DNA from: Giardia intestinalis
Lineage: Eukaryota
Reading direction: 5' to 3' (one strand)
DNA: 64,000 nt
Assembly: GCA_000002435.2 (NCBI GenBank)
Contig: CM018793.1
The notes beneath the pieces were generated by a model. The model saw only the letters and a list, made by a program, of their open reading frames with translations. It ran no database searches and was not told the DNA's origin. The position numbers were made by a program, and so were the translations under genes. Below are positions 1-46,210 of the stretch, one piece after another. Each line of letters begins with the position of its first letter. Within the stretch, counting starts at the first letter, position 1.

Positions 1-1414
1 GGGCGCCCTCAACAGCAGCCCCGGTCCTGCACAGTCTCGATCAGGGGAACGTGCCCCTCGCTCTAAGGAGCTACACGAGACCTTCCTCTGGCCACAGCAC
101 ACATGGACTCAGTCCCGTGCAGTGTTCCTCAGGGACCCTCTAGGTATGCTCCTATGCTGCGCTGGACGGAACGCGCTCACTAAGCAGCTGAAGGAGGTGC
201 CCCCTCAGTGCCTGCGCCGACGACGTACTGATCCTGCGCGACGACAACAACGAGGCAATGAGGTTGGCAAACCCACGGACTGACGATCAACACAGACAAC
301 TTAAGAGCACCGAGGGGGTAGGAGGGCTCCTTCCTGGGTGTCCGGTCTCGAGGAGCGGCTACCCACGGCCTCCAAGGAGATAGAGAGGGTAACGAAAAGG
401 TTGCAACTGTGTCAATCGCCCACCACCCAAGCCAAGCTGATCTGGATAGACTCACCACGCGACCCCTACGGATCCCTCGGAGGGCAGGCCTGCCCTCTGG
501 ACGCCCGGCTCGAGCAACAGCGGACCGAGCTCCTGGCTACGCAGGACAGCGGCAGTCGGGAGTCCACCACAAGCAGCTGCGCGGTGCTTGACACCTCGAC
601 GTGAGACGTGGCACATGGGCAGGCTGCCAGCGGGACAGCCTCGTGGTGAGCAACGCATCGTACACGAAACGTGCCCTGGTCGCTCCGATGCTTCAGATAA
701 CGCCTCTCGGAGAGCTGTGACCGGGCCAGCCTCTCCGGCTGAACGACTCATGGCTCCACGTACACTCTGCGGTACGGATGGGTGCAGACCACACCAGCCG
801 AGCCGGCACACTGCACAGGGTGTGGACCTGCGAGTGTGTACTGGCTGCTGACCACCTGGCACCACAGGTGCACTGCGGTTCATGAGCAGAAGGGCGAGCC
901 GGGCGTCTCCTCCGCGCCAACCAGGGGTCGACATGAGGGTCCACGGGCACACGCTATAATCCAGGAGGACGCATGGCGAACGCACCCCGACGGTAGGATC
1001 GATGGTCCACTCCATGAGGAGGCGAGAAGGAACCCGAGTCGGCATTCCGAGGCCATGACACATGCGATCTTCGTCGTGGAGCACTACACCCTCAAGGCCA
1101 GACCGCCACGACTTGCGACAGGGCCCTGGGGCAGCGGTACCCACCAGGCGCCAGGCAGCAGCCGGCCCCATGGAGGTTGAGCAAAGGAAGGGAGAAGTCC
1201 ATCGAAGGCGCTGTGGAAAACTAGCAACAGCACGAAAGGGAGCCAAACAACATTAAACCTCTTCTTTTCCCATCAGAGCTGGACGGAGTCTGAATTTCGA
1301 ATGTCGGATTTTGGATGGTAAACAAGGAAGGACCTATCTGATGAGGTGGCGGATCGCGCGATGGACTTACTCGGACAGCGGCTAGCAAACCAGCCTCGGT
1401 GAAACAGAGAGTAA
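1..1414. repeat. Left arm of a long perfect inverted repeat (>=1414 bp, truncated by window start); exact reverse complement of 3463..4876
   Basis: Seen directly: position x pairs with 4877-x (checked at 1-80, 601-660 and 1401-1414). All six-frame ORFs in 180..1455 have identical mirror ORFs in 3395..4697 (264, 132, 87, 85, 88, 92, 60 aa). GC-rich (~60%). Confidence 0.9.
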
Positions 1415-1750
1415 CTCTTGGAACTATCTACAATATGGGATACATGTACTGACACGGCAATCCACTTGATAGGGACGAATCCATAGGCAGTTACGGCCCA
1501 GAATAGGGTAAACTACAAGTGGATACCGTTGTTTCGTAAAGGAAAGTTTACCTAACTCCTTGGATTTTATTAACTGCTCTATCTTACACAAGTTGCGCAG
1601 GAGTCCCAGTCAGCTACAGCGTTATATAATCTACCGTGTGCTTGGAGCCAGAATTCGAAGCCATATATACACTAAGCACTGTGTGCTACAAACTAATTAT
1701 ACAGAGTAAGAAGGGTACAACCACCCAGCGGAGCATATACTCTGACTACG

Positions 1751-3370
1751 GTGAGCTATAAACAAGATAATGTGAATTATAAAATATTTACCGTCACACA
1801 CATTCCGTTTACAGCAATTAAAACAAAAATGTCTTTAGCCAAACTCGATGATGGGCGTAGCAGTCTTGAAGCTGGTGGTAGGTCGAGCGTAGAAGCCCGT
1901 CTCTTAGATGGAGAGGCTGACCTTGCATGGGCTATCGTGAATGGGCACAAAGAGATAATGAGGGTACTTTCAAAGTACGTTGGCTGGACTGACCTCATTT
2001 GTGCCGCTGCTCTTGGGAGCGTGAACAGGGTCATGGAGCACCTTGATGAGTGTGAAGAAAGGGACGTCAATGGTAGGACAGCCCTTATGTGGGCTGCTAT
2101 GAACGGGCATAAAGAGGTAGTGGAGATGTTAGTGGAGTATGGAAAGAAGATGGTTGATGACCAGGGTCATACTGCTCTGTACTACGCTCTCAAGGGTGGG
2201 TCTCTTGAGATTGCCAAAATACTTATACCTCACGAAAACCCAACCGATGAGAACGGCATCACGGCGCTCATGCGGGCTGCTACCGATAGAGACGCCGAAA
2301 TGGTGGAATTGCTTATACCACTCCAGAAGGGAATGAAGGATAAGGACGACAACACAGCGTTCGTGCATGCCCTCAAAAACAAACATACGGACATCGCTCT
2401 GCTTCTCCGCGGACATGAATCCCCCTCGTGGACTCCCTTGATGTGTGCTGCTTTCATCGGTGATGTCAAAGTAGCCAGAAGATATTTATCTAGCAAAGAT
2501 GAGAAGAATAATGATGGTAACACTGCGTTAGTACTTGCTGCGAGGGCAGGACATAGAGATATCGTAGAGCTTATTGATCCTATTGATGAGAACGGCATCA
2601 CGGCGCTCATGCGAGCTGTTGGTAGAAATGACGTGGAGGCTGTAAAAGCACTCTTACCCATCCAGAGGGGAAGAAAAACATACAAAGAGGTCACAATAAG
2701 CGGATGGTACATGCGCAAAGGAACAGCTCTGATGATGGCTGCGGCACATGGATACGCAGAAATAGTAGAACTGCTAGCAGAGCACGAAAAGGGAGAGAAA
2801 GTAGGCGGTTGGACCGCTCTCATATTCGCGGCACGGTGCAATCGTTCCAATGACCCCCTGGTGGACTATTCTAAGTGCGTTGAGCTCCTGGTAAAGCACG
2901 AGGGCGACATTTCAGGGTGGACGGATCTCATATATGCCGCTTACCGTGGCGATATTGACGCAGTCAGAAACAACCTTCATATGAAGGGAAGCCAGGATGC
3001 TGGTGGGTGGACAGCGCTTATGTATGCAGCAGCACGAGGGCACGAAGCGATTGTAGAGCTGCTCAAGCAAGAAACTCGTATGAAGAATAACGATCATCAG
3101 ACTGCCCTCATGTGGGCAGCACGCAATGATCATCCAGAGTGCGTCAGGCTCCTAATGAAGGACGAAGGCGGCATGCAAACGACCAAGGGCTGGACCGCCC
3201 TTATGAACGCAGCATATAGCAACACCGTGGAGTGTGCAAGGCTTCTTAAGGAAACCGAGAAAGATCTGAAGACAACCTGCAGCTGCCATGGTCACTCGCC
3301 TGGTACCACTGCTCTCGACATCGCTAAGAAGAAGGATCACAAAGAGATAGTAGACATCCTTTCAAGCTGA
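1751..3370 (+). CDS. Ankyrin-repeat protein, Giardia Protein 21.1 family (539 aa; real start may be the Met at 1829, MSLAKLDDG)
   Basis: Long ORF with about 12 ankyrin repeats and the recurrent G(W/R/H)TALM(W/R)AA signature typical of Giardia 21.1 proteins. Sits in the 2048-bp spacer between the inverted-repeat arms. Confidence 0.85.
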   Translation: MSYKQDNVNYKIFTVTHIPFTAIKTKMSLAKLDDGRSSLEAGGRSSVEARLLDGEADLAWAIVNGHKEIMRVLSKYVGWTDLICAAALGSVNRVMEHLDECEERDVNGRTALMWAAMNGHKEVVEMLVEYGKKMVDDQGHTALYYALKGGSLEIAKILIPHENPTDENGITALMRAATDRDAEMVELLIPLQKGMKDKDDNTAFVHALKNKHTDIALLLRGHESPSWTPLMCAAFIGDVKVARRYLSSKDEKNNDGNTALVLAARAGHRDIVELIDPIDENGITALMRAVGRNDVEAVKALLPIQRGRKTYKEVTISGWYMRKGTALMMAAAHGYAEIVELLAEHEKGEKVGGWTALIFAARCNRSNDPLVDYSKCVELLVKHEGDISGWTDLIYAAYRGDIDAVRNNLHMKGSQDAGGWTALMYAAARGHEAIVELLKQETRMKNNDHQTALMWAARNDHPECVRLLMKDEGGMQTTKGWTALMNAAYSNTVECARLLKETEKDLKTTCSCHGHSPGTTALDIAKKKDHKEIVDILSS

Positions 3371-3376
3371 TCCCAG

Positions 3377-3383
3377 AGTGAAT
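3377..3383 (+). promoter_or_regulatory. Putative Giardia poly(A) signal AGTGAAT (AGTRAAY) 7 nt after the ankyrin gene stop
   Basis: Matches the Giardia AGTRAAY consensus at the expected distance after the TGA at 3368..3370. Confidence 0.4.
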
Positions 3384-3462
3384 GACAGACCCTTTTGCTG
3401 CACTCCACGCTAGTTATGGATCGTACATTATCTCTCTTGATGTCTAGTGGTACTCTACGCGT

Positions 3463-4876
3463 TTACTCTCTGTTTCACCGAGGCTGGTTTGCTAGCCGCT
3501 GTCCGAGTAAGTCCATCGCGCGATCCGCCACCTCATCAGATAGGTCCTTCCTTGTTTACCATCCAAAATCCGACATTCGAAATTCAGACTCCGTCCAGCT
3601 CTGATGGGAAAAGAAGAGGTTTAATGTTGTTTGGCTCCCTTTCGTGCTGTTGCTAGTTTTCCACAGCGCCTTCGATGGACTTCTCCCTTCCTTTGCTCAA
3701 CCTCCATGGGGCCGGCTGCTGCCTGGCGCCTGGTGGGTACCGCTGCCCCAGGGCCCTGTCGCAAGTCGTGGCGGTCTGGCCTTGAGGGTGTAGTGCTCCA
3801 CGACGAAGATCGCATGTGTCATGGCCTCGGAATGCCGACTCGGGTTCCTTCTCGCCTCCTCATGGAGTGGACCATCGATCCTACCGTCGGGGTGCGTTCG
3901 CCATGCGTCCTCCTGGATTATAGCGTGTGCCCGTGGACCCTCATGTCGACCCCTGGTTGGCGCGGAGGAGACGCCCGGCTCGCCCTTCTGCTCATGAACC
4001 GCAGTGCACCTGTGGTGCCAGGTGGTCAGCAGCCAGTACACACTCGCAGGTCCACACCCTGTGCAGTGTGCCGGCTCGGCTGGTGTGGTCTGCACCCATC
4101 CGTACCGCAGAGTGTACGTGGAGCCATGAGTCGTTCAGCCGGAGAGGCTGGCCCGGTCACAGCTCTCCGAGAGGCGTTATCTGAAGCATCGGAGCGACCA
4201 GGGCACGTTTCGTGTACGATGCGTTGCTCACCACGAGGCTGTCCCGCTGGCAGCCTGCCCATGTGCCACGTCTCACGTCGAGGTGTCAAGCACCGCGCAG
4301 CTGCTTGTGGTGGACTCCCGACTGCCGCTGTCCTGCGTAGCCAGGAGCTCGGTCCGCTGTTGCTCGAGCCGGGCGTCCAGAGGGCAGGCCTGCCCTCCGA
4401 GGGATCCGTAGGGGTCGCGTGGTGAGTCTATCCAGATCAGCTTGGCTTGGGTGGTGGGCGATTGACACAGTTGCAACCTTTTCGTTACCCTCTCTATCTC
4501 CTTGGAGGCCGTGGGTAGCCGCTCCTCGAGACCGGACACCCAGGAAGGAGCCCTCCTACCCCCTCGGTGCTCTTAAGTTGTCTGTGTTGATCGTCAGTCC
4601 GTGGGTTTGCCAACCTCATTGCCTCGTTGTTGTCGTCGCGCAGGATCAGTACGTCGTCGGCGCAGGCACTGAGGGGGCACCTCCTTCAGCTGCTTAGTGA
4701 GCGCGTTCCGTCCAGCGCAGCATAGGAGCATACCTAGAGGGTCCCTGAGGAACACTGCACGGGACTGAGTCCATGTGTGCTGTGGCCAGAGGAAGGTCTC
4801 GTGTAGCTCCTTAGAGCGAGGGGCACGTTCCCCTGATCGAGACTGTGCAGGACCGGGGCTGCTGTTGAGGGCGCCC
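3463..4876. repeat. Right arm of the long perfect inverted repeat (reverse complement of 1..1414; may extend past 4876 because the left arm is cut by the window edge)
   Basis: Seen directly; the inner boundary is at 1414/3463, where the complementarity ends. Confidence 0.9.
3485..3518 (-). repeat. Conserved 34-nt junction element (CGATGGACTTACTCGGACAGCGGCTAGCAAACCA), inverted-repeat copies at 1359..1392 (+) and 3485..3518 (-); third diverged copy at 12313..12346
   Basis: Direct comparison: 12313..12346 reads CGATGGACTTACTCAGACTGCGGCCAGCAAACCA, i.e. 31/34 identical to the inverted-repeat copy. In both loci the element lies 55-115 nt downstream of a 21.1 ankyrin gene stop, in the same orientation relative to that gene. 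Confidence 0.6.
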
Positions 4877-6588
4877 TGTAATCGAGCGAGACCGCCTGGC
4901 TTCCTCAGTCTCGTGTGCGCATACGAGCGCATACTATATGTGCATGCAGGCCCCAGTGTCCAGTGCCTGAGACTTCAGATGGCCCGGCAGTATCTGTGAA
5001 GAGCCGTCGTGGTCGCTCCACAGGTTATGCTTGCCTCGTTCTTGGGGATGAGGACCTCCAGTACGCAGATCTAGGCGAGGTCCAGGAGACCTCGAGAACC
5101 CATGGACGGACCCCCGGGTCATCTCGTCGTCAGTTACCTTGGGAGAGATGCCCGTGCTCTCCGCTGGCTGCAGAACAGGGGGCTCGTGTCCCTCCAGGGT
5201 GCAGCCCGTACGCTACCCTGATCCCCTCTGAGGAGTCCGGGTCGAGGGGGCCCGTGGGAGAGGAGCCCCATGGGGCGGCAGCTACTCTTCGCCGGGGGTC
5301 CTTCATGCGCTCGGTGGCCTATTCTTGTTCGGAACCTTCTGGTGGGTGTTGCTCATGTAGCGGTCCACAGTGTGACGAGGTGCATCTCCTCTGCCATCTC
5401 CATCCTTTCGCGCAGTAGCACCTTGCACTTGCTGTCTGTGCCGCAGTACATTTGGACAGCTCTGGCTCCAGTGAGTTTTGTGCAGAGCGGGCAGATGCTC
5501 GTCCTGCTCATGCTTGAGTGACTGTCATCTGGTGCCGCTCAACATGGGGTGTTCTGCTTCGGCTAGATGCTTCCTGGGCGCCGTCCTAGGTTGACGCATT
5601 TAGATCAGCGAACAGGTAGGATTCCCTCGATCTGATGTCAGCCAGCGTGCTCAGAAACGCACCCAATCTCTCAGCTAAGACGTGCATCAGCTCTACACCC
5701 TTTATCAGGTGCTCATGTGTGCACATGAGGTCTCTGCTCTTGTTATGGCGTCGAGACATCTTCTTTGTGAGAGCTGCAGCATCCACAGTGTATCGGTACG
5801 AGTCGTGATCTATGCATCCCTTGGATTTGTGACTGAACCCGGGACAGCTGGTGATAGAGAGTTCCGTTTTTTCTGGGAGCACAAGACACAGAGAGAACGG
5901 ATCTGTTTCCTGCTGCATGGTAGAGGCCACCCAGTTCTATCATGCCCTGGTTATGGTAATGGCGTTCTGGTTTTCATCTTTGCTAATCCTAATCAGATGT
6001 GACTCTGGCGACGAGAACTAAGAGCTGTATCTGAAGACTTCCAAGGAGCTTGAAGGTGCTCCGGTCTAGCGTCGTCTTTACTGGAGGGGATAACAGGCAA
6101 CAGTGGTGGCCCATGTGGAACGCCTGCACTTGGACACCAGGGTTTGGTGTAGTATGATCTGAAATACTAGCCGATCACAAAGGCATGGAAGGGCAACAGG
6201 GGGCCTTCGACTGGGGCATTGCTTGACGAATGAGGCTGCGTAGAGAGGGCCCGAGGCGGGAGAGACGCTTCCAAATGTATCGCTCGAGCTCCTTACCCGT
6301 GGAAAAGCTCTTCAAACGGGAGATGCAGGGATGCCGCTCACAGCCTTTGGCGCCGTGGACAACGTAACGGAGACAAGTCGGGAGGTTCCTAGAGGCGTAG
6401 TCCCGTCGACGAAGTGGCGCGTTCGTGAGCCGTTTCTGTATTCTTTAAGCGACTCAGTTAGGGAGAGTTTTACTGATAACGTCAGCCATCTTGGGGCCCG
6501 TCACTGCAGCATGCTCTCTTCAGCAGGGAGTTTCACTGAGGCGGTGGGTGTGAGGGCCCCTCCTTTCATGCCTGTGGTACCGCTCATC

Positions 6589-8115
6589 CTACAAAGGCGC
6601 AGAGGGTCGGGTGCTGGGGTGCCCGCCTTCTTCCGTTTTCGCCAGAGATACGCGGCACCGAAGCATTGAAACTGAGTGAGAGAGGCCGTCCAGCGCGGCG
6701 GTTCGCATGAGGAATTTATTCTGACAGCATTGAAATTCTTCTACAGGGGAGACCTCCTCCACTTCCACAGGATGCCCGTGGAGAGCGGCGCAGACGGCCC
6801 CCGCTCTGTCGGCACGTGCGAGCTGGCCCCTTCGACACACACGTTCTGCGCCCTGTACGAGACAGAGGGGGCCTTGCGGTGCGTCTTCACGGCCGTGGAC
6901 AGGGTGCGCCTGTTCCTCTGCATGGCGAGCACGCAGGTGAGTTCCGGCCGTCGTGCTGGGGTCGGGGGGAAGTCGCAGAGGGACCAGGAGGGGAAGCCTC
7001 GAACGGGTTAGCACCGCATAGGACTTCCTTCCATTGCCTAAAACACGCAAGGGTGCACGCGTCCACCCACTGAGCAGGCAGATGAGGCGATGACTGATGG
7101 CAGGGTGGCCAAGACTCACTTCTGCCCTCGGCCGAGCGACACATGAAATGAAGAGCGTTTGCATCTTAAACAGATAGATATTGTGTTTTTGCGAGGCGTC
7201 TTGTCTGGGCGGTTTTGGGTTGGAGGGGCTAGAGTTATTATTTGTGCGAGGGTTGTCATGCTCTAGTGGAAGAAAGAATACAACTCGAGATATGATTGAT
7301 TCTAGAAGAGTCAACCCCAGTGAATACACATCTCCCAAAGCATCAAGAGACGTGGGTGTTACACTTTCTTGTCGGTCAAAGAGGGAACCATTAGTAGAGA
7401 GGAAATCATAGCATCTGAGCGTCGATTCAGGCGCCCTGTACACGAGGGTGCACGTTGTTCCCGTTGAAATGGGGGAGTAGTGATCGGCGGAAAGAACCTC
7501 AGGCTCAGCGTAGTTAGCAGAAGCACTTGGAGAGGAATAAACACAATACTTAGCCATCCCCAGGTCTGCAAGAAAAGCAGAGCCGTTGCCATCCAGAAGA
7601 ATGTTCGACGGCTTGACGTCTCTGTGTGCGATCCCCAGTCTGTGAAGGTTCCGAAGACAAGTAACCACAGAGTGCCAGAAGAACACCATCTGGGACAGTG
7701 TAAAGCTGCTTACTAAGTTGTACGTTCGGAACCTTTCACAGTCGTGTGGATAGAGCGGAGTGACAAGGCAGATTAGCGAAGAGCAGTTCTCGAAATGCTT
7801 CGCAAAGGGTAAGTCTTTCGTTGTATCATCGAGTCGTAATTTGAAGCTCGAGATAAGATCGATTGCAGGATTCTTAAAAGGCTGGCCGCCAGCCGTAACC
7901 TGAGCCAGGTATGCGAGTAAGGTCACTTCACGCAGCACCAGATGGTTGAAAACGCCTGAAATGCCGACAGCCTTGAGAGCAACAGGTTTGCCCGTCTCCT
8001 TATCTATCCCCTTGTAGATCGTGCCGTACGCGCCTGCTCCGAGGTACCCTGTGGGTGACCAGTCGATCGCATACCGCTCGAGGGAAGAGGGGATGGTCGG
8101 CTGTGGCTCGGTCAT
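6589..8115 (-). CDS. Ser/Thr protein kinase, NEK-like, probably a fragment or pseudogene (kinase subdomains I-IX present; C-terminal about 560 nt of the ORF looks non-coding)
   Basis: GAGAYGT glycine loop, VALK, HRDVKPSNILL, DLG, APE and DVYSLG are present, but subdomain XI is missing and the remaining ORF (6589..7150) is Arg/Pro/Ala-rich GC-rich read-through. The listed ORF start at 8217 reads through the tRNA; the start is taken as the internal Met at 8113..8115 (MTEPQPTIP). Confidence 0.5.
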   Translation of the reverse strand: MTEPQPTIPSSLERYAIDWSPTGYLGAGAYGTIYKGIDKETGKPVALKAVGISGVFNHLVLREVTLLAYLAQVTAGGQPFKNPAIDLISSFKLRLDDTTKDLPFAKHFENCSSLICLVTPLYPHDCERFRTYNLVSSFTLSQMVFFWHSVVTCLRNLHRLGIAHRDVKPSNILLDGNGSAFLADLGMAKYCVYSSPSASANYAEPEVLSADHYSPISTGTTCTLVYRAPESTLRCYDFLSTNGSLFDRQESVTPTSLDALGDVYSLGLTLLESIISRVVFFLPLEHDNPRTNNNSSPSNPKPPRQDASQKHNIYLFKMQTLFISCVARPRAEVSLGHPAISHRLICLLSGWTRAPLRVLGNGRKSYAVLTRSRLPLLVPLRLPPDPSTTAGTHLRARHAEEQAHPVHGREDAPQGPLCLVQGAERVCRRGQLARADRAGAVCAALHGHPVEVEEVSPVEEFQCCQNKFLMRTAALDGLSHSVSMLRCRVSLAKTEEGGHPSTRPSAPL

Positions 8116-8130
8116 CAAAACAAGGGAAAG

Positions 8131-8203
8131 TGCCGGGGCCGGGAATCGAACCCGGACCGATCGGACGACAACCGAGCGCGCTAGACCGTTACGCCACCCC
8201 AGC
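8131..8203 (-). tRNA. tRNA-Asp (anticodon GTC), 73 nt
   Basis: The minus-strand sequence GCTGGGGTGGCGTAACGGTCTAGCGCGCTCGGTTGTCGTCCGATCGGTCCGGGTTCGATTCCCGGCCCCGGCA folds into a cloverleaf by hand: 7-bp acceptor stem (one G-U pair), D-stem GCGT/GCGC, anticodon loop TTGTCGT (U33, GTC at 34-36), T-loop TTCGATT, T-stem CCGGG/CCCGG, discriminator A. Confidence 0.85.
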
Positions 8204-8214
8204 CAGGGAGGAAA

Positions 8215-9250
8215 CAAATTAAAGATTATATAAAATATTTGGTTTAATAGAAATTATTTGTAATAGAGTATTTGTAATTTTATTGGTTTATCCTAACTTT
8301 TTCTGACAATCGTTCACTCCCTAAAATAGACACCTTTTAGGCACTAGCATCGTAAACGGTGCAGGACATAAGATCTAACATGCGTTGAAAGTTTCATCAC
8401 ACTAAATCTTCATAACCAACAAACTGGACAAAGTTCTTTTTGGAACTATTTAACTATCTGTCCAGTGCCTTAAAAAGATTTACTCTTCATTGCTATTGCC
8501 AAATTCAGGGTAATTCTAGCATTATACTCTGTACAACTCGGTCTCTTGCCAGATAAACATATTTACTATCGGCAATAACTTTGCTAGGTTACATGTAATA
8601 TAGCGAATGTTTATCGTACAATAATTGAAATTAGGCCTGTTGTCCACAAAAGTAATTTATTCTTAAAGTTACTCATTCTCTTCTAATGGAGTACTGTGCA
8701 CACAGTTCCTCTCTACTTATAAAAAGTTGACATTTGGATGCAACAACATCTTAACCAGCCTTGTAGAAAGAATCTCTATGTATGAAGCACTTCTAAGAAA
8801 TGTATTATAGTAACAACTTAAATAACATCAGACCTGTTTTAGTGTTTACCGTTGTGTTAGTCAATATTTTTATAACCATAAACAATTCTAGAGCAATTCT
8901 CCACGACAATATACCGCAGACTTCATAAGTGGTAACTATAAATTTATTCTACAATGGCACTACTACGGTTTTAAAGAAAATTGCTTCCTCATGAAACTTA
9001 CTGACTGGTTAGAAACAAAACTATTTATCATTAATTGATAATCATTAGAACTCCAGGCAGTATCTTTCAAATAACTCCCCGTTGCTTCTAATATATAGTG
9101 AGGGAATATTTACCACTTGTAAGATTATTTGAAAAGTTCATTAAATAGCACTTCCAATATCAGCATCTCTTACATTGAATAAATTTAGATGTTATTTGAA
9201 CAGAAAATTATCTTTAAACTTACTATTAATAGTCATCATATAGTGCTAAA
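8215..9250. other. About 1 kb strongly AT-rich, ORF-free island (roughly 28-30% GC against a ~50% GC background)
   Basis: Seen directly: no ORF of 60 aa or more in any frame and no tandem periodicity visible by eye. Sharp transitions to GC-rich DNA at ~8215 (tRNA side) and ~9250-9290 (retroelement side). Confidence 0.7.
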
Positions 9251-9646
9251 AGCAATGGAGACAAGGATATCTGATAGAGGAGCGTCATGTATGAGTTTCT
9301 ATATGTGGTGCCGCTGAGGCTTGTCGCGGTGCGGTCCAGAAATCTCACGGGCAAGCCTCGCTCAGTCCCTGACCAGCTCGGAGACGAAGGTTGGCTGCGG
9401 GCGTGCACATCGATCTTTTCGAGGTTTTCTTACGGGCTCGCTGGTCTACTAGGGTGCCTCTCCCTGTTCTCCCTTCACGATTGGCGAAGCTCTGGTCTTT
9501 GTTGTCATTCTCAATACTGTCCATGTAGATCAGCAGCAGCTAACGGGGCCCTCTCCACTGGCTGGGATTCCACTCGGTTGTGTGTCCAGTCTTGCGCCCC
9601 CTTTCGGTCGTTGTCGACAGGTCCCAGGGATGGATTCATTCGGTTG

Positions 9647-10143
9647 TCAGAAGTAGGATGACAGGAGGCGGTCGCTCTGGGTGGCCAGGCTTTCGGCCCG
9701 GTCGCGTCTGATCAGCTTCGTCAGGTGCTCGTTCGCCTCTGCAGCCATGTGGGCGATGGCGAAGGCAGCCCGGACAGAGAGCTTCTCGACGTCCACGTGG
9801 AGCTCCTCGAGGTGCCTCTTGGACCTGGGGTGGAGGGATCCGTCCGTCTCATAGATGATCGGGAGCGTCCCGTCCCTGTACTTCTTGGCCTTCTCGCTGT
9901 GGTATCCATCTGGCGGGGCTGGATGACACCCACGTCCACTGCCTTGCACTTGTCGACGAGCCAGATGTCGGGCTTCTGGTTCTGGTCGCTGAGGTGGCTG
10001 TGGGTCTTGACTTCCAGCTCCGGTTGAGCTTCCCCGAGACGCGGAGGTACAGGTACGCGACGATCATGTTGTGCCTCGTGGTCGAGGGTCTGCCGTGTGG
10101 CAGCCCGGGCAGGTGCCTCTTGTCTGCGCCATGATCGAGCCAT
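9647..10143 (-). pseudogene. Restriction-enzyme-like (R2/GENIE-type) endonuclease domain remnant of the retrotransposon
   Basis: A PD-(x11)-D-V ... K-K-Y pattern is split between two frames (9721..10143 and 9647..9949). Confidence 0.5.
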
Positions 10144-11385
10144 CTCTCTCCTTCAGGGCCCTTTCCTCCTCGGTCAGCACGCCGCCGCTCTGTCCGGAAG
10201 CTGATGTGTGCGCGTGAGGAGGCGGTTGAAGTAGGTCCCCTTCCCCTGCAGTGCCTGGCCGCCCACCGACAGCTCCACCGGGTCCCTGGTCCCCTTGTTG
10301 ACGTCCGGGGAGGCCCATGCCCTCCGCAGCTCGTCGTGGCAGAGCCCCGGCATGAGCAGGCCCAGGCCGCTCTTCTCCTTCGGGTACGCCAGGAAGTCGA
10401 CCAGGCGATCGCAGCTTCTGCTGGTTAGCTTGTTGAAGCCTTGTGCGACGTCTGTCGAGCTCCTCGTAGTCCGCCTTGTCCGATGTCATCTCGACCAGGG
10501 GGGCGTAGTTCACCATCGGGACCACGCAGAGTGACAGCAGGATGAGCTTCTGGTGGGTGGTTATGGGGGCAGTCTCGGCACCTGCGATGGCCTTTGGTGC
10601 GGGACTGGCTGGAGTGGGGGACACCGGGTGGCTGAGGAAGGTCACCTCCTCGCCCGCCATGGTGGACTTGCATTTGTCGCTCCTTATCGTCAGGTCCATA
10701 GCCTGCTGTACTATTGCGCCTGCTGGGTAGGCCTCATCGTGGAGCGCCACGATGTCGTCTGCATAGGCAAGGAAGGCGATGCCTCTCTCCGTGAGGCGTC
10801 TCAGAGGCGCTCGATGGCCATGCAGAAGAGGAGCGTGCTGAGCGGGTCGTCCTGGGGGACGCCGCAGACCCCGCACTTCACGTCCTTGCTGTGCCTCAGG
10901 TCGAGGAAGTTCCTGATGTAGTCGACCAGGACCTTCGGGATGCCCGCCTCGTTCAGGGCTCTGACGACCTCTGCCCTCGGGAGCGAGTTGAAGGCCTTCT
11001 TTGTGTCGAGGGAGACGGCGTGCACCTGTCCTGCTGATGAGCTCGTGGGCCCTCCTCATGCCTACCGCGTATGCGTTCTGCATGAAGGCGATCTGTTCGC
11101 ACGAGAGGTAGTTGGCATGCTTGATCAGCCGCTTCAGCAGGACGCGGTGGAAGATGTTTGTCACCGTCTCGCCATCGCGATCGGACGGTATCCGTCGGAC
11201 TCCTTCGGGATGAGGATCGCCCGGAACTCGAACATGGCCATCACGTCGGACATCGCCTCGGGGTGGGTGGTCAGCTCGTTGTACGCCTGCGTGAGGTACT
11301 TCACGAAGTCGTCGTTCTGCTTCCTCGCTTTGAGCTGGACCGCCCGAGGCCTTCTTGTTGAGGGTCCCAACAGGGCCTTCCTCAT
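10064..11385 (-). pseudogene. Reverse transcriptase domain of the dead retrotransposon (frameshifted)
   Basis: RT motifs 0/1, A, B' and C (YADD) are spread over three overlapping ORFs in different frames, so at least two frameshifts are needed to read through. Confidence 0.75.
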
Positions 11386-12312
11386 TTCTTCTTCGGTTGC
11401 CGGCTCCAGCCCGTTGAGCTCATCGATGGAGGGTAGTCAAGGCTAACGTAGCCTTCGGGGGGACGCACGGGTGTAACGCGCTGAGGGCGGCCTTGGCTTT
11501 CTCCGGCTTGATGTCAACCATGGGCGTATCATCAAGGGCGCGGAGAGCCTTGGCAACTGCTCCGAAGCTCAGCGCGTTACTCACCCTGTTTGCTATCCGG
11601 CGCCTCGCCTTCTCGGGGTCTGGGTCTGCCTTACTCTGGGACTGCTCCGTGGTGTTGCTTGAGTCCTCCAGGCCTCCTACCAGGGCGTTCAGGCCCCTGA
11701 TTGCGGGGAGCGCGACCCCAGTCCCGGGCTGCTCGATGCTCGCGATCATGCGCGCACCCTGGTGGATGAGCATGGCAGCTGTCTGGTTCGGTATGTGGGA
11801 CGGAAGGATCGGTTTGTCGTCGCCCGGTACTCTGTGTCTGTCGTTGTTTGCTTCTCTTAGATGCTCGGTTGGTTGCTTGGCACCCTCGCACGGTAGGCCA
11901 CAGAGCCAGCGTGTGTGTCCTGCCGAGAGGGCAAACGTCTTCGGAGTGGTCTCCCAAGTAGAACCTCACGATTGCTCTCTGGGGCCCGGAGGTACGATCT
12001 TGCGTTCATGATGTGGATCGGGTCTTCGCGGGCTCTCCTTCGCCTCAGATCCAGCTGTGCACACTCCCAGTCTGGGCACACACCCGCAGAACAGCTGAGG
12101 AACGCAATAGCTCCTCCCTTCCACTACTGTGGTCATTATCATATTCCATAGCCAACCCTCGTCTCCGGACATCGCCAAAAATTGAGTGGGAATTTACTCG
12201 CGAGATTTGCGGACAGCACCCGCAGGCGAGGGCCCCAGCAGCACACCACTGGAAGCAACCGGTGGGTGGAGTAAATGATGAGCGAGGATGCCGTTCAACA
12301 TAGTGACTCGTA

Positions 12313-12346
12313 CGATGGACTTACTCAGACTGCGGCCAGCAAACCA
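12313..12346 (+). repeat. Third copy of the conserved 34-nt junction element, between the retroelement 5' end and the next ankyrin gene
   Basis: 31/34 identity with 1359..1392. Weaker flanking similarity (GTAAA and TGATGAG upstream) is tentative. Confidence 0.55.
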
Positions 12347-12397
12347 ACTTCTTTTTGAAGAGAAACGACAGATTTATTCATGAGACTACAGAGCAGT

Positions 12398-13279
12398 CTA
12401 TTGGTCATTGCAACCATTGACACTAGGTGTACTGCCCCTAAGGAGAGACGCTATCTCGAGGTATCCCCTAGAAGTAATCTTGTCAAAGAAATATTCATTA
12501 GACTTGTCTATCAGATGCCCCTCTTTTTCTAATAGAAGCTTTACCACTTCTAAGTGACCCTTTAGCGCTCTATGTTCAAGAGCAGTCATCTCATTCCTAT
12601 CCTTTACACCCCCCTCCAGATCTACTAACAATCTTGCTATTTCCACGTTCCCCATAGAAGCCGCGTTCATAAGCGCAGTCATACCTACCATGTTTTGTGC
12701 ACCACTGTCGTATCTTATTACCAACTTTGCTGTCTCTATGCAACCGCGTGTGGCTGCTCGCATAAGCCTCGTGTCGCCGAATGTATCGGTTGGCTCAAGA
12801 ATATTCACAATAATTTTGTGCCCTGCCTCCTTAGCAATCATCAGGGCCATCTTGCCTTCGCTGTCGATTAAGTTCTCCTCGTACGGAATCAGAACAGAAG
12901 CAGCCTCCGCATGGCCCTCCTGTGCGGCGATCATCAGAGCAGTACGGCTGTTCTTGTTTCTTCTCCCACATTCGTAAGGGGCAAGAATTTCAACTACCTC
13001 AGGGTGGTTGTTGTGTGCGGCGTGCATGAGTGCAGTCCAGCCGTTCTTGTCCTGGAGGCCCCTCTCTTCCTCAACAAGCAACTCGACGGGATCAGCGTGC
13101 CCCTGCTCGTCGCGCTGATCAACACCGAGTCTTTCTTCAAGCAGCATCCGGACGGTCTCTGTGTTATTCGTGTGCGCGGCACGCATCAGCCTGGGCAGCA
13201 AAAGGAGGCTGGACTGAGGGCCAGCCATATTCACTCTGTCATCGAACTGTGCAAGCCTACTCTCCAGTGCCTTAATCAT
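12398..13279 (-). CDS. Ankyrin-repeat protein, Protein 21.1 family (293 aa)
   Basis: Repeated GxTALMxAA ankyrin units. Confidence 0.85.
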   Translation of the reverse strand: MIKALESRLAQFDDRVNMAGPQSSLLLLPRLMRAAHTNNTETVRMLLEERLGVDQRDEQGHADPVELLVEEERGLQDKNGWTALMHAAHNNHPEVVEILAPYECGRRNKNSRTALMIAAQEGHAEAASVLIPYEENLIDSEGKMALMIAKEAGHKIIVNILEPTDTFGDTRLMRAATRGCIETAKLVIRYDSGAQNMVGMTALMNAASMGNVEIARLLVDLEGGVKDRNEMTALEHRALKGHLEVVKLLLEKEGHLIDKSNEYFFDKITSRGYLEIASLLRGSTPSVNGCNDQ

Positions 13280-13281
13280 AG

Positions 13282-14342
13282 CTAGATGTTCCTTACTTTG
13301 GTCTTCAAGTGCGTCGATCTAGTGGATTTAGTCTTAACATCCTCTTCCAGCAGCGCGATCCTGGCGTTAGCGCCATTCAGCGCAGCCTCCAAGGATCCGC
13401 ACTTATACTTCAGCATCACGCACTGACCCCCCAACTCACTAACTGGGATGTCGAATGTAGTGAGCGTCTCATGCAGCTCCCTGACCATCGGCCTCCTCTC
13501 TGGCTCCAGCACGAATATCCTCTCCAGAACACTCTTTATGAATCCATCAGTGAGACCGCTCAGGTCCGGCCTCCACCCGTCACGAAGACCTCTGCCGGCT
13601 CCTTGCCCCCCAAGAAGTCCGGTCTCCTCAGAGTTACTAATTCATAAATGATGACCCCGAGGCTCCATACGTCGGAGGCAGGGCTGGCCTCGTTGTGGAG
13701 GAGCACCTCGGGGGCAACGTATGCCATTATTCCTATGAGAGTGCTCCCGCATCTCAGGGCGTCCTTGCAGAGGCTGAAGTTGGCGATGACGAAGCGCTCT
13801 CCGTCTGCGCTAATAAGGACGTTGGCAGGCCTGAGGTTGCGGTGGACAAACCTCCTAGTATTTGCTCCATTGACACCGTGGAGGTAGGCGAGGGCGGCGG
13901 CAAGCTGCCTCACAATTGAGAGGATCACAGCGATAGGGACGAGGTTCTTCCTTCGCTTGTGCTCGGCGAGGAGGCGCTCAAGGGTCTTGTCGTGCCGGTC
14001 CATGACGACATAGATGAGGCCCTCGTCTTCGACTACTTGGTGGTGCTTGAGGACTCCTGGGTGGGAGAGGGTAAGGATGACGGTCAATCTTGTCTTGATG
14101 GCGTCCAGATCCCCCTTGTCCAGGCCGTCGATGAGGATCTCCTGCACAGCGAGGTCCGGAAAGTCCTTGAGGGAGTAGACTGTCACCATAGTGCTTTCAT
14201 TAAGCACATCACCTAACCGCTCATGAAGCTCCCTAGGGGTGAACGGTAAGACACTGACAGCTGTTGTTGCAGGCTCAGACGAGGAAGTGTCCATCCTGGT
14301 ATTATTTTGGTAATCTACCGTTTTGGAAACGATCCTTTCCAC
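13282..14342 (-). CDS. NEK-like pseudokinase interrupted by a frameshift (ORFs 13560..14342 and 13282..13512 belong to one kinase domain); possible pseudogene or sequencing error
   Basis: The upstream ORF carries kinase subdomains III-IX with HRN replacing HRD, ANFS replacing DFG and no glycine loop, so it is a predicted inactive kinase. The downstream ORF in another frame encodes subdomain XI (LTDGFIKSVLERIFVLEPERRPMVRELHETL). Hand translation shows both frames open across 13513..13580. Confidence 0.6.
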
Positions 14343-14599: not shown

Positions 14600-15343
14600 T
14601 TAAGCGCGTTCACTCACAAGCTTCCTGGGCTGCATCTGCAAGTATGGATCTACAATACCCTCACTCTCGAGAAAAGATGCTACCTCGGAGTTATTCCATC
14701 TATTGGCCATATGGATGGCATCTACGCCACTTATGTCCCTCTCCTTCTCCAGTAACAACTTGACACAGTCCAGATGATCATGCCTTGCTGCAAGCACGAG
14801 GGCAGTATAACCTCTGCCCTTCTGCATGCCGCCCTCAATCTTCAGGAGTAGTCTCACGACCTCGGTACGGCCAACAAGTGCCGCCCACATGAGGGCTGTC
14901 CACTCCTCACTGTCCCTCATGCCGCCCTCGCACCTCATCAGCAGCTTCACCGTCTCAACGTTTCCAAGCGCTGCGGCGACCATCAGGGCCGTCCCATCGT
15001 ATATCTCTACTCTCCCTGCCTTGACAAACCTCGCCATCATCCTTGCCTGATAAGGGATGTAGCGCTTCACCGCATCCACGTCGTTCCTCTTAGCTGCCTC
15101 CATAAGTGTGGTGACGCCGTCCTCGTCCACACTGCCTTCATCATCTGTCTGTGGAGACTCGGCGGGGCTGCTCTTACCTGCGCCCTCTTCGCTCGTGTCC
15201 TTCTCTGGCGCGAGGGGCGGGGCGCAGTCGTGCTTCTGAAGGAGTTGACCTGAATCATCCACAGACGACATTTTTATTCCATGGTCACAAAGGAAACGCG
15301 TGTACTGGTAAACTTGCGATTCACGGTATTGTTTACAGATCAT
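14600..15343 (-). CDS. Ankyrin-repeat protein, Protein 21.1 family (247 aa; alternative start MSSVDD at 15271)
   Basis: TALM-type ankyrin repeats and an acidic N-terminal region. Confidence 0.8.
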   Translation of the reverse strand: MICKQYRESQVYQYTRFLCDHGIKMSSVDDSGQLLQKHDCAPPLAPEKDTSEEGAGKSSPAESPQTDDEGSVDEDGVTTLMEAAKRNDVDAVKRYIPYQARMMARFVKAGRVEIYDGTALMVAAALGNVETVKLLMRCEGGMRDSEEWTALMWAALVGRTEVVRLLLKIEGGMQKGRGYTALVLAARHDHLDCVKLLLEKERDISGVDAIHMANRWNNSEVASFLESEGIVDPYLQMQPRKLVSERA

Positions 15344-15698: not shown

Positions 15699-16292
15699 CT
15701 ACGCTTTGCCCCGGCAGAGGAACCACCAGCAGAGGAAGCCGACGAGGCCCCCGACGACGATGACAGCGGCCACAGCGATGCCAGCTATGGCGCCCGTGGA
15801 AAGGCCGCTCTTGTTGACGCTAGAAGGCACGCACTTTTTATCATCACCTAGAACAAATCCGTCGTTACACTCTGTACACGTGCCGTCGGGACATGACTTG
15901 CAGTTAGGAAGATCGCAGCCAGCGGGCGCGTCCGCGCAAACACGCTCGTTCGCGGTGGGGCCGTACGGGCACTCGTCGTAGCATCCGCCCTTGTAGAGGC
16001 TGTGCGCGCCCGTGCATGCAGTGCACGTCCCTGCCTTATCGCTTGTACCGGCCGTGCACATGCCCGCGTCCGTCTTCGCCTTGCACTCCCCGTTCACCGG
16101 GACCTTGTCCCCTGTGCACTTGGAGCAGAAGGTCTGGCCCCCGATTTCCACGTTGCAGCTGTCGGCGGCGCAGTTTGTCGCGCCGGGGTTTGCGGCGGCG
16201 CACGGCGTTGGGTTTGTCTTTGCTTTACTTGCTGTTTGCGACGCCAAGGCCATTTGCAGGGCCAAGCTTACAAAAATAAGCTTATCGAACAT
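15699..16292 (-). CDS. vsp: Variant-specific surface protein (VSP), small (197 aa)
   Basis: N-terminal signal peptide (MFDKLIFVSLALQMALA), many CxxC motifs, a C-terminal transmembrane helix and the invariant VSP cytoplasmic tail CRGKA. Confidence 0.9.
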   Translation of the reverse strand: MFDKLIFVSLALQMALASQTASKAKTNPTPCAAANPGATNCAADSCNVEIGGQTFCSKCTGDKVPVNGECKAKTDAGMCTAGTSDKAGTCTACTGAHSLYKGGCYDECPYGPTANERVCADAPAGCDLPNCKSCPDGTCTECNDGFVLGDDKKCVPSSVNKSGLSTGAIAGIAVAAVIVVGGLVGFLCWWFLCRGKA

Positions 16293-45070: not shown

Positions 45071-46210
45071 ATGGAGATAGATATTGCCTCTCACATCGCG
45101 TTGGTGGAGAAGATAGGGAAGACCACGATCTCTACCCCCATCAAACGCATCATATCCTACTCTATCGTTATTTTGATGAGGGACTATCGTCTAACCTCTG
45201 TTAAGCTTGTGGCTGTCATCAAGGCTCTCAACCAAAAGGAGTACGTTATTCTTCAGGCCGAGAGGGCATTCTTTGTAACGCAAGACGGGCACTCGTGGTC
45301 ACCGCTTCCCGTGCTAAATACTGAGGAGTCGCTCATACTCCACGCAATAGGCTATGGGATATTCTCACTCCATCCGTTTACAGGAGATCCCGCAGTTCAG
45401 TTATATAATAACTTGACTGAGAACCATCGCCTCTCTAATTTAATCTACTACGTGGAGTCCATCTCTCCCTACCCGCAGAATGCGCTCAAGCAGGCCCAGC
45501 GCTTTGCAGGGCTTTCCTCTGCCGAAGCAGAAGACTTCTCCAGCTATGAGGTTGCGCCTATAGACGACCACCAGCGACCAGACTTCAGCACAGTCAATTA
45601 TGATATGCTGAACGCATTACAGCAAGAGCATATGGATGATTGCCCGATCTCCTTTGCGGAACTGCAAAAATTCCAATTTTCCTCTGCCATTTTGAGTTCG
45701 AAAGAGGAGAACGGAGGCGTCACCAACTTTCACAAGCCCCTGCGATCAGAGGACTGGACAATAACATCGGACCCGTACAGGCGCCTTACTACCCTATCTC
45801 ACAAGTACTGGACCGGCCTCCATTCATTCCTTTACTGGAAGTCTCGTGTGTACGGATGGTTCTATTCTCCTCCTCTTGGTGCAAACTCTGCCCTATATAG
45901 GTTGCCGGACTTCATATTTATGCATGTCAAGCCCGGATTTATTTCAAAGGAGGACCTGGAGGAGCAGAGATCAAAAGCAGAACTCAAAGCAAAGTTCAAG
46001 GACGAAGAAGACCGAATACTGGCAAGTCGTGCCAGCAAGAAGGCTGCCCGCATAGAGGCACGTCGCAATGCAGAAGAACAAATCCGCCTAAGGCTTGAGC
46101 GCCGCGAGCAACGCAGACTCGAACGAGAGGCAGCCGAGGAGGCCGCACGTAAGGCAGCCGAAGAAGCCGAAGAGGCCGAAGATGGTGAAGAAAATGGTGA
46201 AGCGGAATAA
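45071..46210 (+). CDS. Hypothetical protein with an E/R/A-rich charged C-terminal tail (379 aa)
   Basis: Clean ORF. Its stop (46208..46210) lies 1 nt from the stop of the convergent helicase gene. Confidence 0.6.
   Translation: MEIDIASHIALVEKIGKTTISTPIKRIISYSIVILMRDYRLTSVKLVAVIKALNQKEYVILQAERAFFVTQDGHSWSPLPVLNTEESLILHAIGYGIFSLHPFTGDPAVQLYNNLTENHRLSNLIYYVESISPYPQNALKQAQRFAGLSSAEAEDFSSYEVAPIDDHQRPDFSTVNYDMLNALQQEHMDDCPISFAELQKFQFSSAILSSKEENGGVTNFHKPLRSEDWTITSDPYRRLTTLSHKYWTGLHSFLYWKSRVYGWFYSPPLGANSALYRLPDFIFMHVKPGFISKEDLEEQRSKAELKAKFKDEEDRILASRASKKAARIEARRNAEEQIRLRLERREQRRLEREAAEEAARKAAEEAEEAEDGEENGEAE

Follow-up and report, generated by a model that had tools for sequence, protein, structure and literature searches.

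Nucleotide-identical inverted gene pairs have been documented in Giardia genomes. Giardia intestinalis WB has 19 identical pairs of VSP genes, 12 convergent and 7 divergent, with intervals of 2513-3301 bp for most pairs; a reverse-transcriptase (RT) remnant lies in the interval of four pairs and a NEK gene in the interval of one, and duplications account for 6.9% of the genome (Xu et al. 2020, PMC7000408). A second description of WB gives 20 VSP pairs, and counts some NEK and ankyrin proteins among the duplicated genes (bioRxiv 10.1101/2022.03.07.483299). In G. muris, seven identical inverted VSP pairs have NEK, ARP or zinc-finger genes or pseudogenes between them (PMC7641422), and nanopore data led to the prediction of 162 inversions, along with 2 inverted duplications, as variants within the WB isolate (PMC7048089). 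Here, we describe a perfect inverted repeat at the start of a 64,000-nt stretch of G. intestinalis WB (assemblage AI), contig CM018793.1 (assembly GCA_000002435.2; the whole stretch is referred to as the window), the arms of which flank a gene for Ankyrin repeat protein 1, abbreviated ARP-1. We consider it likely that the repeat is a genuine inverted segmental duplication, in which two identical non-coding copies of at least 2.06 kb flank a self-contained ARP-1 gene, and that this arrangement is passive.

The repeat belongs with the catalogued identical inverted duplicates of Giardia, although it is not a VSP pair. Like the identical WB pairs, it occurs in the WB genome, is nucleotide-identical and inverted, and lies in a gene-family-rich region that breaks synteny. 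Its interval of 2.05 kb compares with 2.5-3.3 kb in most WB VSP pairs, and holds ARP-1, much as intervals of the WB pairs hold an RT remnant, a NEK gene or a pseudogene. The arms of the WB pairs are VSP genes; in contrast, a Pfam search of positions 3463-6600 detected neither a VSP nor any other credible gene in the arms described here, and the only nearby VSP (15699-16292) is outside the repeat. The present pair was not found in the accessible part of the published tables. The G. muris pairs share with this locus an ankyrin-repeat gene between identical inverted copies, but they belong to another species and their arms are VSP genes. An earlier annotation of the window, made from the sequence alone (the original prediction), held that a real invertible cassette at this site would be new for Giardia. 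That novelty is not sustained, given the identical inverted pairs documented in WB and G. muris, and the inversions and inverted duplications predicted as intra-isolate variants. What the locus does add is that identical inverted duplications in Giardia extend beyond VSP genes: non-coding sequence found downstream of NEK/ankyrin paralogues can take this form as well.

Plastids, the yeast 2-micron plasmid with its FLP/FRT system, and herpesviruses also have long and perfect inverted repeats, which can serve inversion and homogenisation. Unlike these flip-flop repeats, the present repeat is chromosomal, has no arm genes that would explain a role in dosage or replication, and is not accompanied by an FLP-like recombinase among the open reading frames (ORFs) that were scanned. 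In flip-flop systems both orientations of the segment coexist, which at the present locus would be hypothetical. Hin, Fim and the shufflons resemble it in that inverted repeats bracket a DNA segment; however, their repeats are tens of base pairs long, unlike the arms here, and are served by a dedicated recombinase, which has no counterpart among the scanned ORFs. Moreover, the invertible segment of the bacterial switches parts a promoter or coding piece from its partner, which is not the case at this locus. Lastly, the GilM, GilT, GilD and Genie non-LTR (long terminal repeat) retrotransposons carry RT/endonuclease coding sequence, and the arms carry none.

A repeat finder returned a single inverted pair, whether run on the first 12 kb or on the window as a whole: the arms at 1-1414 and 3463-4876 are 1414 nt long and 100% complementary, and are separated by 2048 nt (Table 1). 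Base-by-base comparison of the arms, which had been predicted to be exact reverse complements, gave no mismatches and no inward extension. The longest exact inverted match in 10 dinucleotide shuffles of the window was 15-18 nt, and chance is therefore excluded as an explanation for exact arms of 1414 nt. No further copy of the repeat occurs within the window. It follows trivially that every ORF in one arm has a mirror ORF in the other, as had been pointed out. The arms are also GC-rich, as predicted, with 61% G+C as compared to 48% in the spacer and 51% over the whole window. Searches for telomere repeats returned none, and searches for tandem repeats returned none of note. The spacer is exactly 2048 (2^11) nt long, with both junctions confirmed in independent contigs; we treat this length as a coincidence.

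The suspicion that the repeat runs on past the edge of the window proved well founded. An ATG-initiated ORF at 5270-5521 (83 aa) corresponds to GL50803_134402 (XP_001708887.1), for which the 2007 WB proteome has two entries, EP00701_P005063 and EP00701_P005066. In the same proteome, P005065 is the ankyrin gene and P005062 the kinase gene, and the numbering tracks genome order, as judged from other genes of the window. Given that P005063 and P005066 bracket the ankyrin gene, the mirror of 5270-5521 must be located beyond the left edge of the window, which gives each arm a length of at least 2059 bp. The duplication of GL50803_134402 in the 2007 annotation also indicates that both arms were already present in the Sanger-based assembly of that year. 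Position 4876 is the mirror of the window edge rather than a natural boundary, since a contig from a more distant isolate (L012) is colinear with window positions 4422-5724 and crosses 4876|4877 without interruption. This contig ends at 5724, and our guess is that the outer end of the arms is near this position.

Both inner junctions of the repeat occur in independent data. The left junction (1414|1415) was seen in three independent Logan assemblies of SRA runs. One contig (SRR9222559) spans window positions 558-1784 and another (SRR26411002) spans 1372-2646, both crossing the junction, while the third (SRR22286255) begins exactly at 1385, i.e. at the junction minus 30 nt. An overlap of 30 nt is what would be expected of unitigs that meet at a branch with k = 31, which we take to be the value used. 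In addition, a contig from SRR3602119 corresponds to 3463-4429 with no mismatch; its first base is the first base of the arm, indicating that the arm end is a repeat boundary. The 454 assembly of isolate DH crosses the right junction (3462|3463) without a break: positions 5579-6864 of AHGT01000146 align to window positions 3038-4325 with 94.8% identity.

The spacer ORF encodes many ankyrin repeats (Pfam Ank_2, E = 4e-84). In Giardia, short A/T-rich elements beside the start codon act as promoters, and an A-rich tract lies immediately 5' of the ARP-1 ATG. Shortly downstream of the stop codon is an AGTGAA motif; AGUGAA is the commonest poly(A) signal in Giardia (PMC3610916). Since the start region, the ORF and AGTGAA are all within the spacer, ARP-1 is self-contained, in agreement with the original prediction of a complete 21.1 gene with its own upstream region and poly(A) signal. 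At 2421-2425, the reference has a run of five C residues, where the contigs from SRR26411002 and SRR22286255 have four, such that the ARP-1 frame is broken; a fragment (P0132) carries a different ARP-1 frameshift. Judging from these frameshifts, ARP-1 looks dispensable in some lines. The possibility that ARP-1 is a strain-specific gene or that the window derives from a source other than WB, suggested by a homology search with no match above 67% identity, was refuted by its exact identity to an annotated WB protein; the 90% cluster that includes ARP-1 is represented by a 210-aa fragment, and hence the protein was missed in that first search.

The arms are non-coding. None of the six frames of 3463-6600 matched any Pfam family, and the arms had no Rfam match at the gathering threshold or at E ≤ 1. 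The protein relatives of the arm ORFs are exclusively Giardia ORFs described as 'hypothetical'. In the current WB re-annotation, the consecutive accessions KAE8305392 and KAE8305393 are those of the ankyrin and kinase genes, indicating that nothing is annotated in the arms or in the GC-rich flank. We conclude that the arm ORFs are spurious, as had been suspected; they lack codon periodicity as well as Pfam and Rfam matches.

The inner end of each arm consists of a transcribed unit of ~1.2 kb, which we refer to as unit U, and GC-rich gene-less sequence follows outward. Within U is a core that is 93% identical to positions 10183-10829 of DH contig AHGT01000107, with flanks that are 65-75% identical. 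The core has 45 substitutions, distributed 15/19/11 among the three codon positions, and a single 1-nt indel. The lack of codon periodicity, together with this indel, indicates that the U core is not coding. AHGT01000107 was considered as the DH orthologue of the present locus, which would have implied assemblage B for the window, and was rejected: it is a paralogous locus, and the orthologue is AHGT01000146.

Unit U is a multi-copy family. One copy is in AHGT01000107, where an IFT20-like gene lies on one side and an ARP-NEK pair on the other, and another is in AHGT01000146. A further copy, in contig L007, is identical to arm positions 3569-4429 (861 bp) and continues with a DH-type 3' end to a poly(A) tail. 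The SRR3602119 contig ends at 4429, the exact point at which the L007 copy diverges from the arm. We conclude that U is normally located just downstream of NEK/ankyrin paralogues. The original prediction had proposed that occurrence of the arms elsewhere, as an ordinary dispersed repeat, would argue against an invertible cassette; this was borne out in part, in that the inner 967 bp have at least one further copy. Metagenome scans with the U core and with a 33-nt module from the inner end of the arm gave no matches.

The 33-nt module has three matches in the window, as compared to none expected. It is located just downstream of the spacer ARP-1 gene and of another ankyrin ORF, where the copy at 12313-12345 is a stub. 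In the DH paralogue, homology begins at the module, directly after the IFT20 gene, and the module itself has diverged there. The module may be a 3'-end or terminator element shared by unrelated genes.

Both strands of the arm are transcribed and polyadenylated: the L007 transcript reads outward, and the transcript represented by the SRR9222559 contig reads inward over the left junction. The latter contig begins with 25 T residues, after which it matches the reverse complement of the window from position 1784. Bidirectional, pervasive antisense transcription is normal in Giardia (PMC3610916).

With regard to the origin of the repeat, the arms could be two members of a segmental duplication family that contains U, brought head to head. 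Their identity would then be due either to a recent duplication or rearrangement that juxtaposed the copies, or to ongoing gene conversion between U copies. Divergence of the right arm is 5% from its DH orthologue but 0% from the left arm, and the third copy is identical over 861 bp, which suggests a recent event or continuing conversion. Moreover, the inner ends of the perfect repeat are 12-23 nt from the onset of U-paralogue homology; limits so close to this onset would fit conversion that is bounded by homology. Recent duplication or gene conversion, two of the three processes that the original prediction had put forward for the zero divergence, is the sensible reading. Ordinary homologous recombination between the arms could also invert the spacer. 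Such an inversion would leave ARP-1 expression unchanged and would involve no dedicated recombinase; with identical flanks, and with the gene carrying its own signals, flipping would have no obvious regulatory consequence. Because the arms are perfect, both spacer isomers would give the same junction sequences in short contigs. The locus would be a convenient and clearly delimited site at which to measure rates of mitotic inversion and gene conversion in a tetraploid, binucleate organism with a debated sexual cycle.

Some observations qualify this account. The U core is unusually conserved; with only 20 shuffles, its folding z-score is -3.3 for one strand, which thus folds better than the shuffles, and -0.6 for the other, and a consensus fold includes no compensatory pairs (from two sequences only). 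The conservation of the core could reflect an old conversion tract or a functional RNA, and it is possible that the arms or unit U have a role. Over the final 20 nt of the left arm, the SRR26411002 contig differs at two small points, and arm identity may not be perfect in every line. The Logan assemblies derive from SRA runs of unspecified strain and library type.

Other explanations for the repeat are also conceivable. Zero divergence and an arm cut by the window edge have the look of a fold-back artefact, in which there would be one true arm and the other would derive from palindromic long reads or amplification chimeras, and one published AI assembly was built from DNA amplified by multiple displacement amplification (PMC12216428). 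An artefact is nonetheless very unlikely. The left junction is present in three short-read run assemblies and the right junction in the DH 454 contig, contig ends coincide exactly with the arm boundary, and a duplicated ORF flanked the ankyrin gene already in the 2007 Sanger annotation; furthermore, a missed-adapter palindrome would lack the 2-kb unique loop. We conclude that a fold-back or amplification chimera is effectively excluded, which answers the worry about an artefact that accompanied the original prediction. Alternatively, the arms could be two opposite insertions of a mobile element, either U itself or a retroelement fragment, in a composite-transposon-like arrangement. The multiple copies of U, its discrete inner boundary and its polyadenylated transcripts would be consistent with this model, as would the weak terminal inverted similarity of the DH copy (~150 nt at 64%) and the dead RT remnant 5 kb away. 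However, the Pfam frames revealed no transposase, RT or endonuclease domain in the arms, the sharp junctions show no sign of a target-site duplication, and arm identity runs at least 1.1 kb past the part that is common to the U copies (4430 to at least 5521). The fixed position of U downstream of paralogous NEK/ARP genes is better explained by segmental duplication. We therefore regard insertion of a mobile element as unlikely.

Endogenous small interfering RNAs (endo-siRNAs) of Giardia reportedly arise from a few genomic regions and from retroposons. The presence of both arm strands in polyadenylated transcripts, L007 outward and SRR9222559 inward, could suggest that the repeat is a source of double-stranded RNA (dsRNA), with read-through or bidirectional transcription of the arms feeding the Dicer/Argonaute pathway, and endo-siRNAs have been reported in Giardia (as cited in PMC11080815). 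On the other hand, the inward transcript is polyadenylated at ~1785, so there would be no run-through hairpin, and pervasive antisense transcription is the norm in this organism (PMC3610916); we consider a dsRNA source distinctly improbable. The original prediction had instead raised an invertible cassette. In a programmed form of this model, a site-specific or regulated inversion would switch the ankyrin gene, as in the systems of Hin, Fim and FLP. Although the gene is bracketed by an inverted repeat, and a transcript derived from the arm enters the spacer and ends ~45 nt before the ATG, all of the gene signals are in the spacer and the arms are identical, such that the local context would be the same in both isomers. 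The arms are a kilobase or more in length, unlike short recombinase sites, and the gene is frameshifted in some runs and seems dispensable. In addition, we found no recombinase domain among the scanned ORFs of the first 29 kb, for which the only matches were to ankyrin, kinase, VSP and RT domains. The scan included every first-29-kb ORF that is 250 aa or longer, apart from the one at 452-1246 (-), the mirror of the scanned arm ORF 3631-4425. It also included several shorter ORFs, positions 3463-6600 in six frames, and positions 9300-12100 in the three frames of the minus strand. A programmed switch is thus highly improbable, and the locus reveals no new kind of gene control. We attach little weight to a combined model, in which the ARP-1 cassette would flip orientation in tetraploid WB and the arms, transcribed from both strands, would act as a dsRNA/siRNA source or as a transcriptional insulator for the gene; if that model were true, the locus would be a functional module and not genomic debris.

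Table 1 Features of the inverted repeat and neighbouring genes. The products of genes listed with accessions match annotated proteins from Giardia intestinalis WB clone C6 exactly
Feature	Position	Strand	Details
Left arm	1-1414	.	Reverse complement of 3463-4876; clipped by window edge, extends at least 645 bp further left
Spacer	1415-3462	.	Unique, 2048 bp; complementarity stops at arm ends
Right arm, portion mirrored in window	3463-4876	.	
Right-arm continuation	4877-5521	.	Mirror off-window; outer end possibly near 5724
3' end of polyadenylated transcript from left arm, reading inward	1771-1785	+	~45 nt before ankyrin ATG
ARP-1 (Ankyrin repeat protein 1; formerly Protein 21.1)	1829-3370	+	513 aa; KAE8305392.1 / XP_001708889.1, exact match
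AGTGAA poly(A) signal of ARP-1	3377-3382	+	7 nt past stop
33-nt module GGTTTGCTRGCCGCWGTCYGAGTAAGTCCATCG	3486-3518	+	Inner end of arm; mirror 1359-1391; third copy 12313-12345 (-)
U core, conserved, non-coding	3795-4440	+	646 nt; mirror 437-1082
Kinase	6589-8115	-	KAE8305393.1
ARP-1 (another)	14600-15271	-	KAE8305394.1
VSP	15699-16292	-	KAE8305395.1; 197 aa, CRGKA tail
Hypothetical protein	45071-46210	+	KAE8305407.1 (GL50803_009121)

Comparison to isolate DH points to a rearrangement that extends beyond the repeat itself. AHGT01000146 follows the window from 18113 down to 13044 at 90% identity, then jumps to 2585 and continues upward to 4325. At positions 5056-5600 of this contig, the ankyrin domain of the NEK gene is fused to the 3' half of the spacer ARP-1. 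These alignments show that a rearrangement, the breakpoints of which fall within ankyrin repeats, separates WB from DH. This would most simply be an inversion of roughly 2585-12834, as suggested by the one DH junction, and a DH-like order would make the arms direct repeats ~9 kb apart. No strong inverted repeats were found in the DH and GS_B contigs that we examined. Ectopic recombination looks to shuffle the C-termini of ARP/NEK family members, and between AI and AII the locus has been remodelled by recombination. Together with the repeat, the difference between WB and DH is an example of the reshuffling and erosion of the large ARP and NEK families by ectopic recombination.

The first ~16 kb of the window are patchy in composition and contain decaying gene-family members, with dense core genes from ~17 kb onward. 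The locus is a decaying, rearranged, synteny-breaking region that is rich in ARP, NEK, VSP and retroelement remnants. In the kinase gene beside the repeat, homology to a GS_B relative ends at 7148, and the Pfam kinase match is partial; the last ~185 residues (6589-7148) are encoded by GC-rich sequence and are rich in Arg, Pro and Ala. KAE8305393.1 may therefore be truncated and fused to junk. A tRNA-Asp(GTC) gene abuts the kinase start, and is followed by ~1 kb at 30-34% G+C (8130-9300), which is unusual for the Giardia genome and in which tandem repeats were not found.

The RT remnant occupies 9300-12100 on the minus strand. It is frameshifted, with the RVT_1 match (E = 1.8e-8) split over two frames at ~10.6-11.2 kb, and a YADD motif is present in the ORF at 10064-11164. 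We conclude that this non-LTR retroelement, at a distance of ~5 kb from the repeat, is dead. Also on the minus strand, a NEK gene (12398-14342) is divided between two ORFs, one for the kinase (13560-14342) and one for the ankyrin part (12398-13279). In DH, the orthologue is continuous across the WB break, and its own ORF is broken further downstream. The split NEK gene, which has been dropped from the current WB annotation, is probably a pseudogene. Lastly, the VSP at 15699-16292 is very short, and also matches a BmKX toxin-like Pfam domain.

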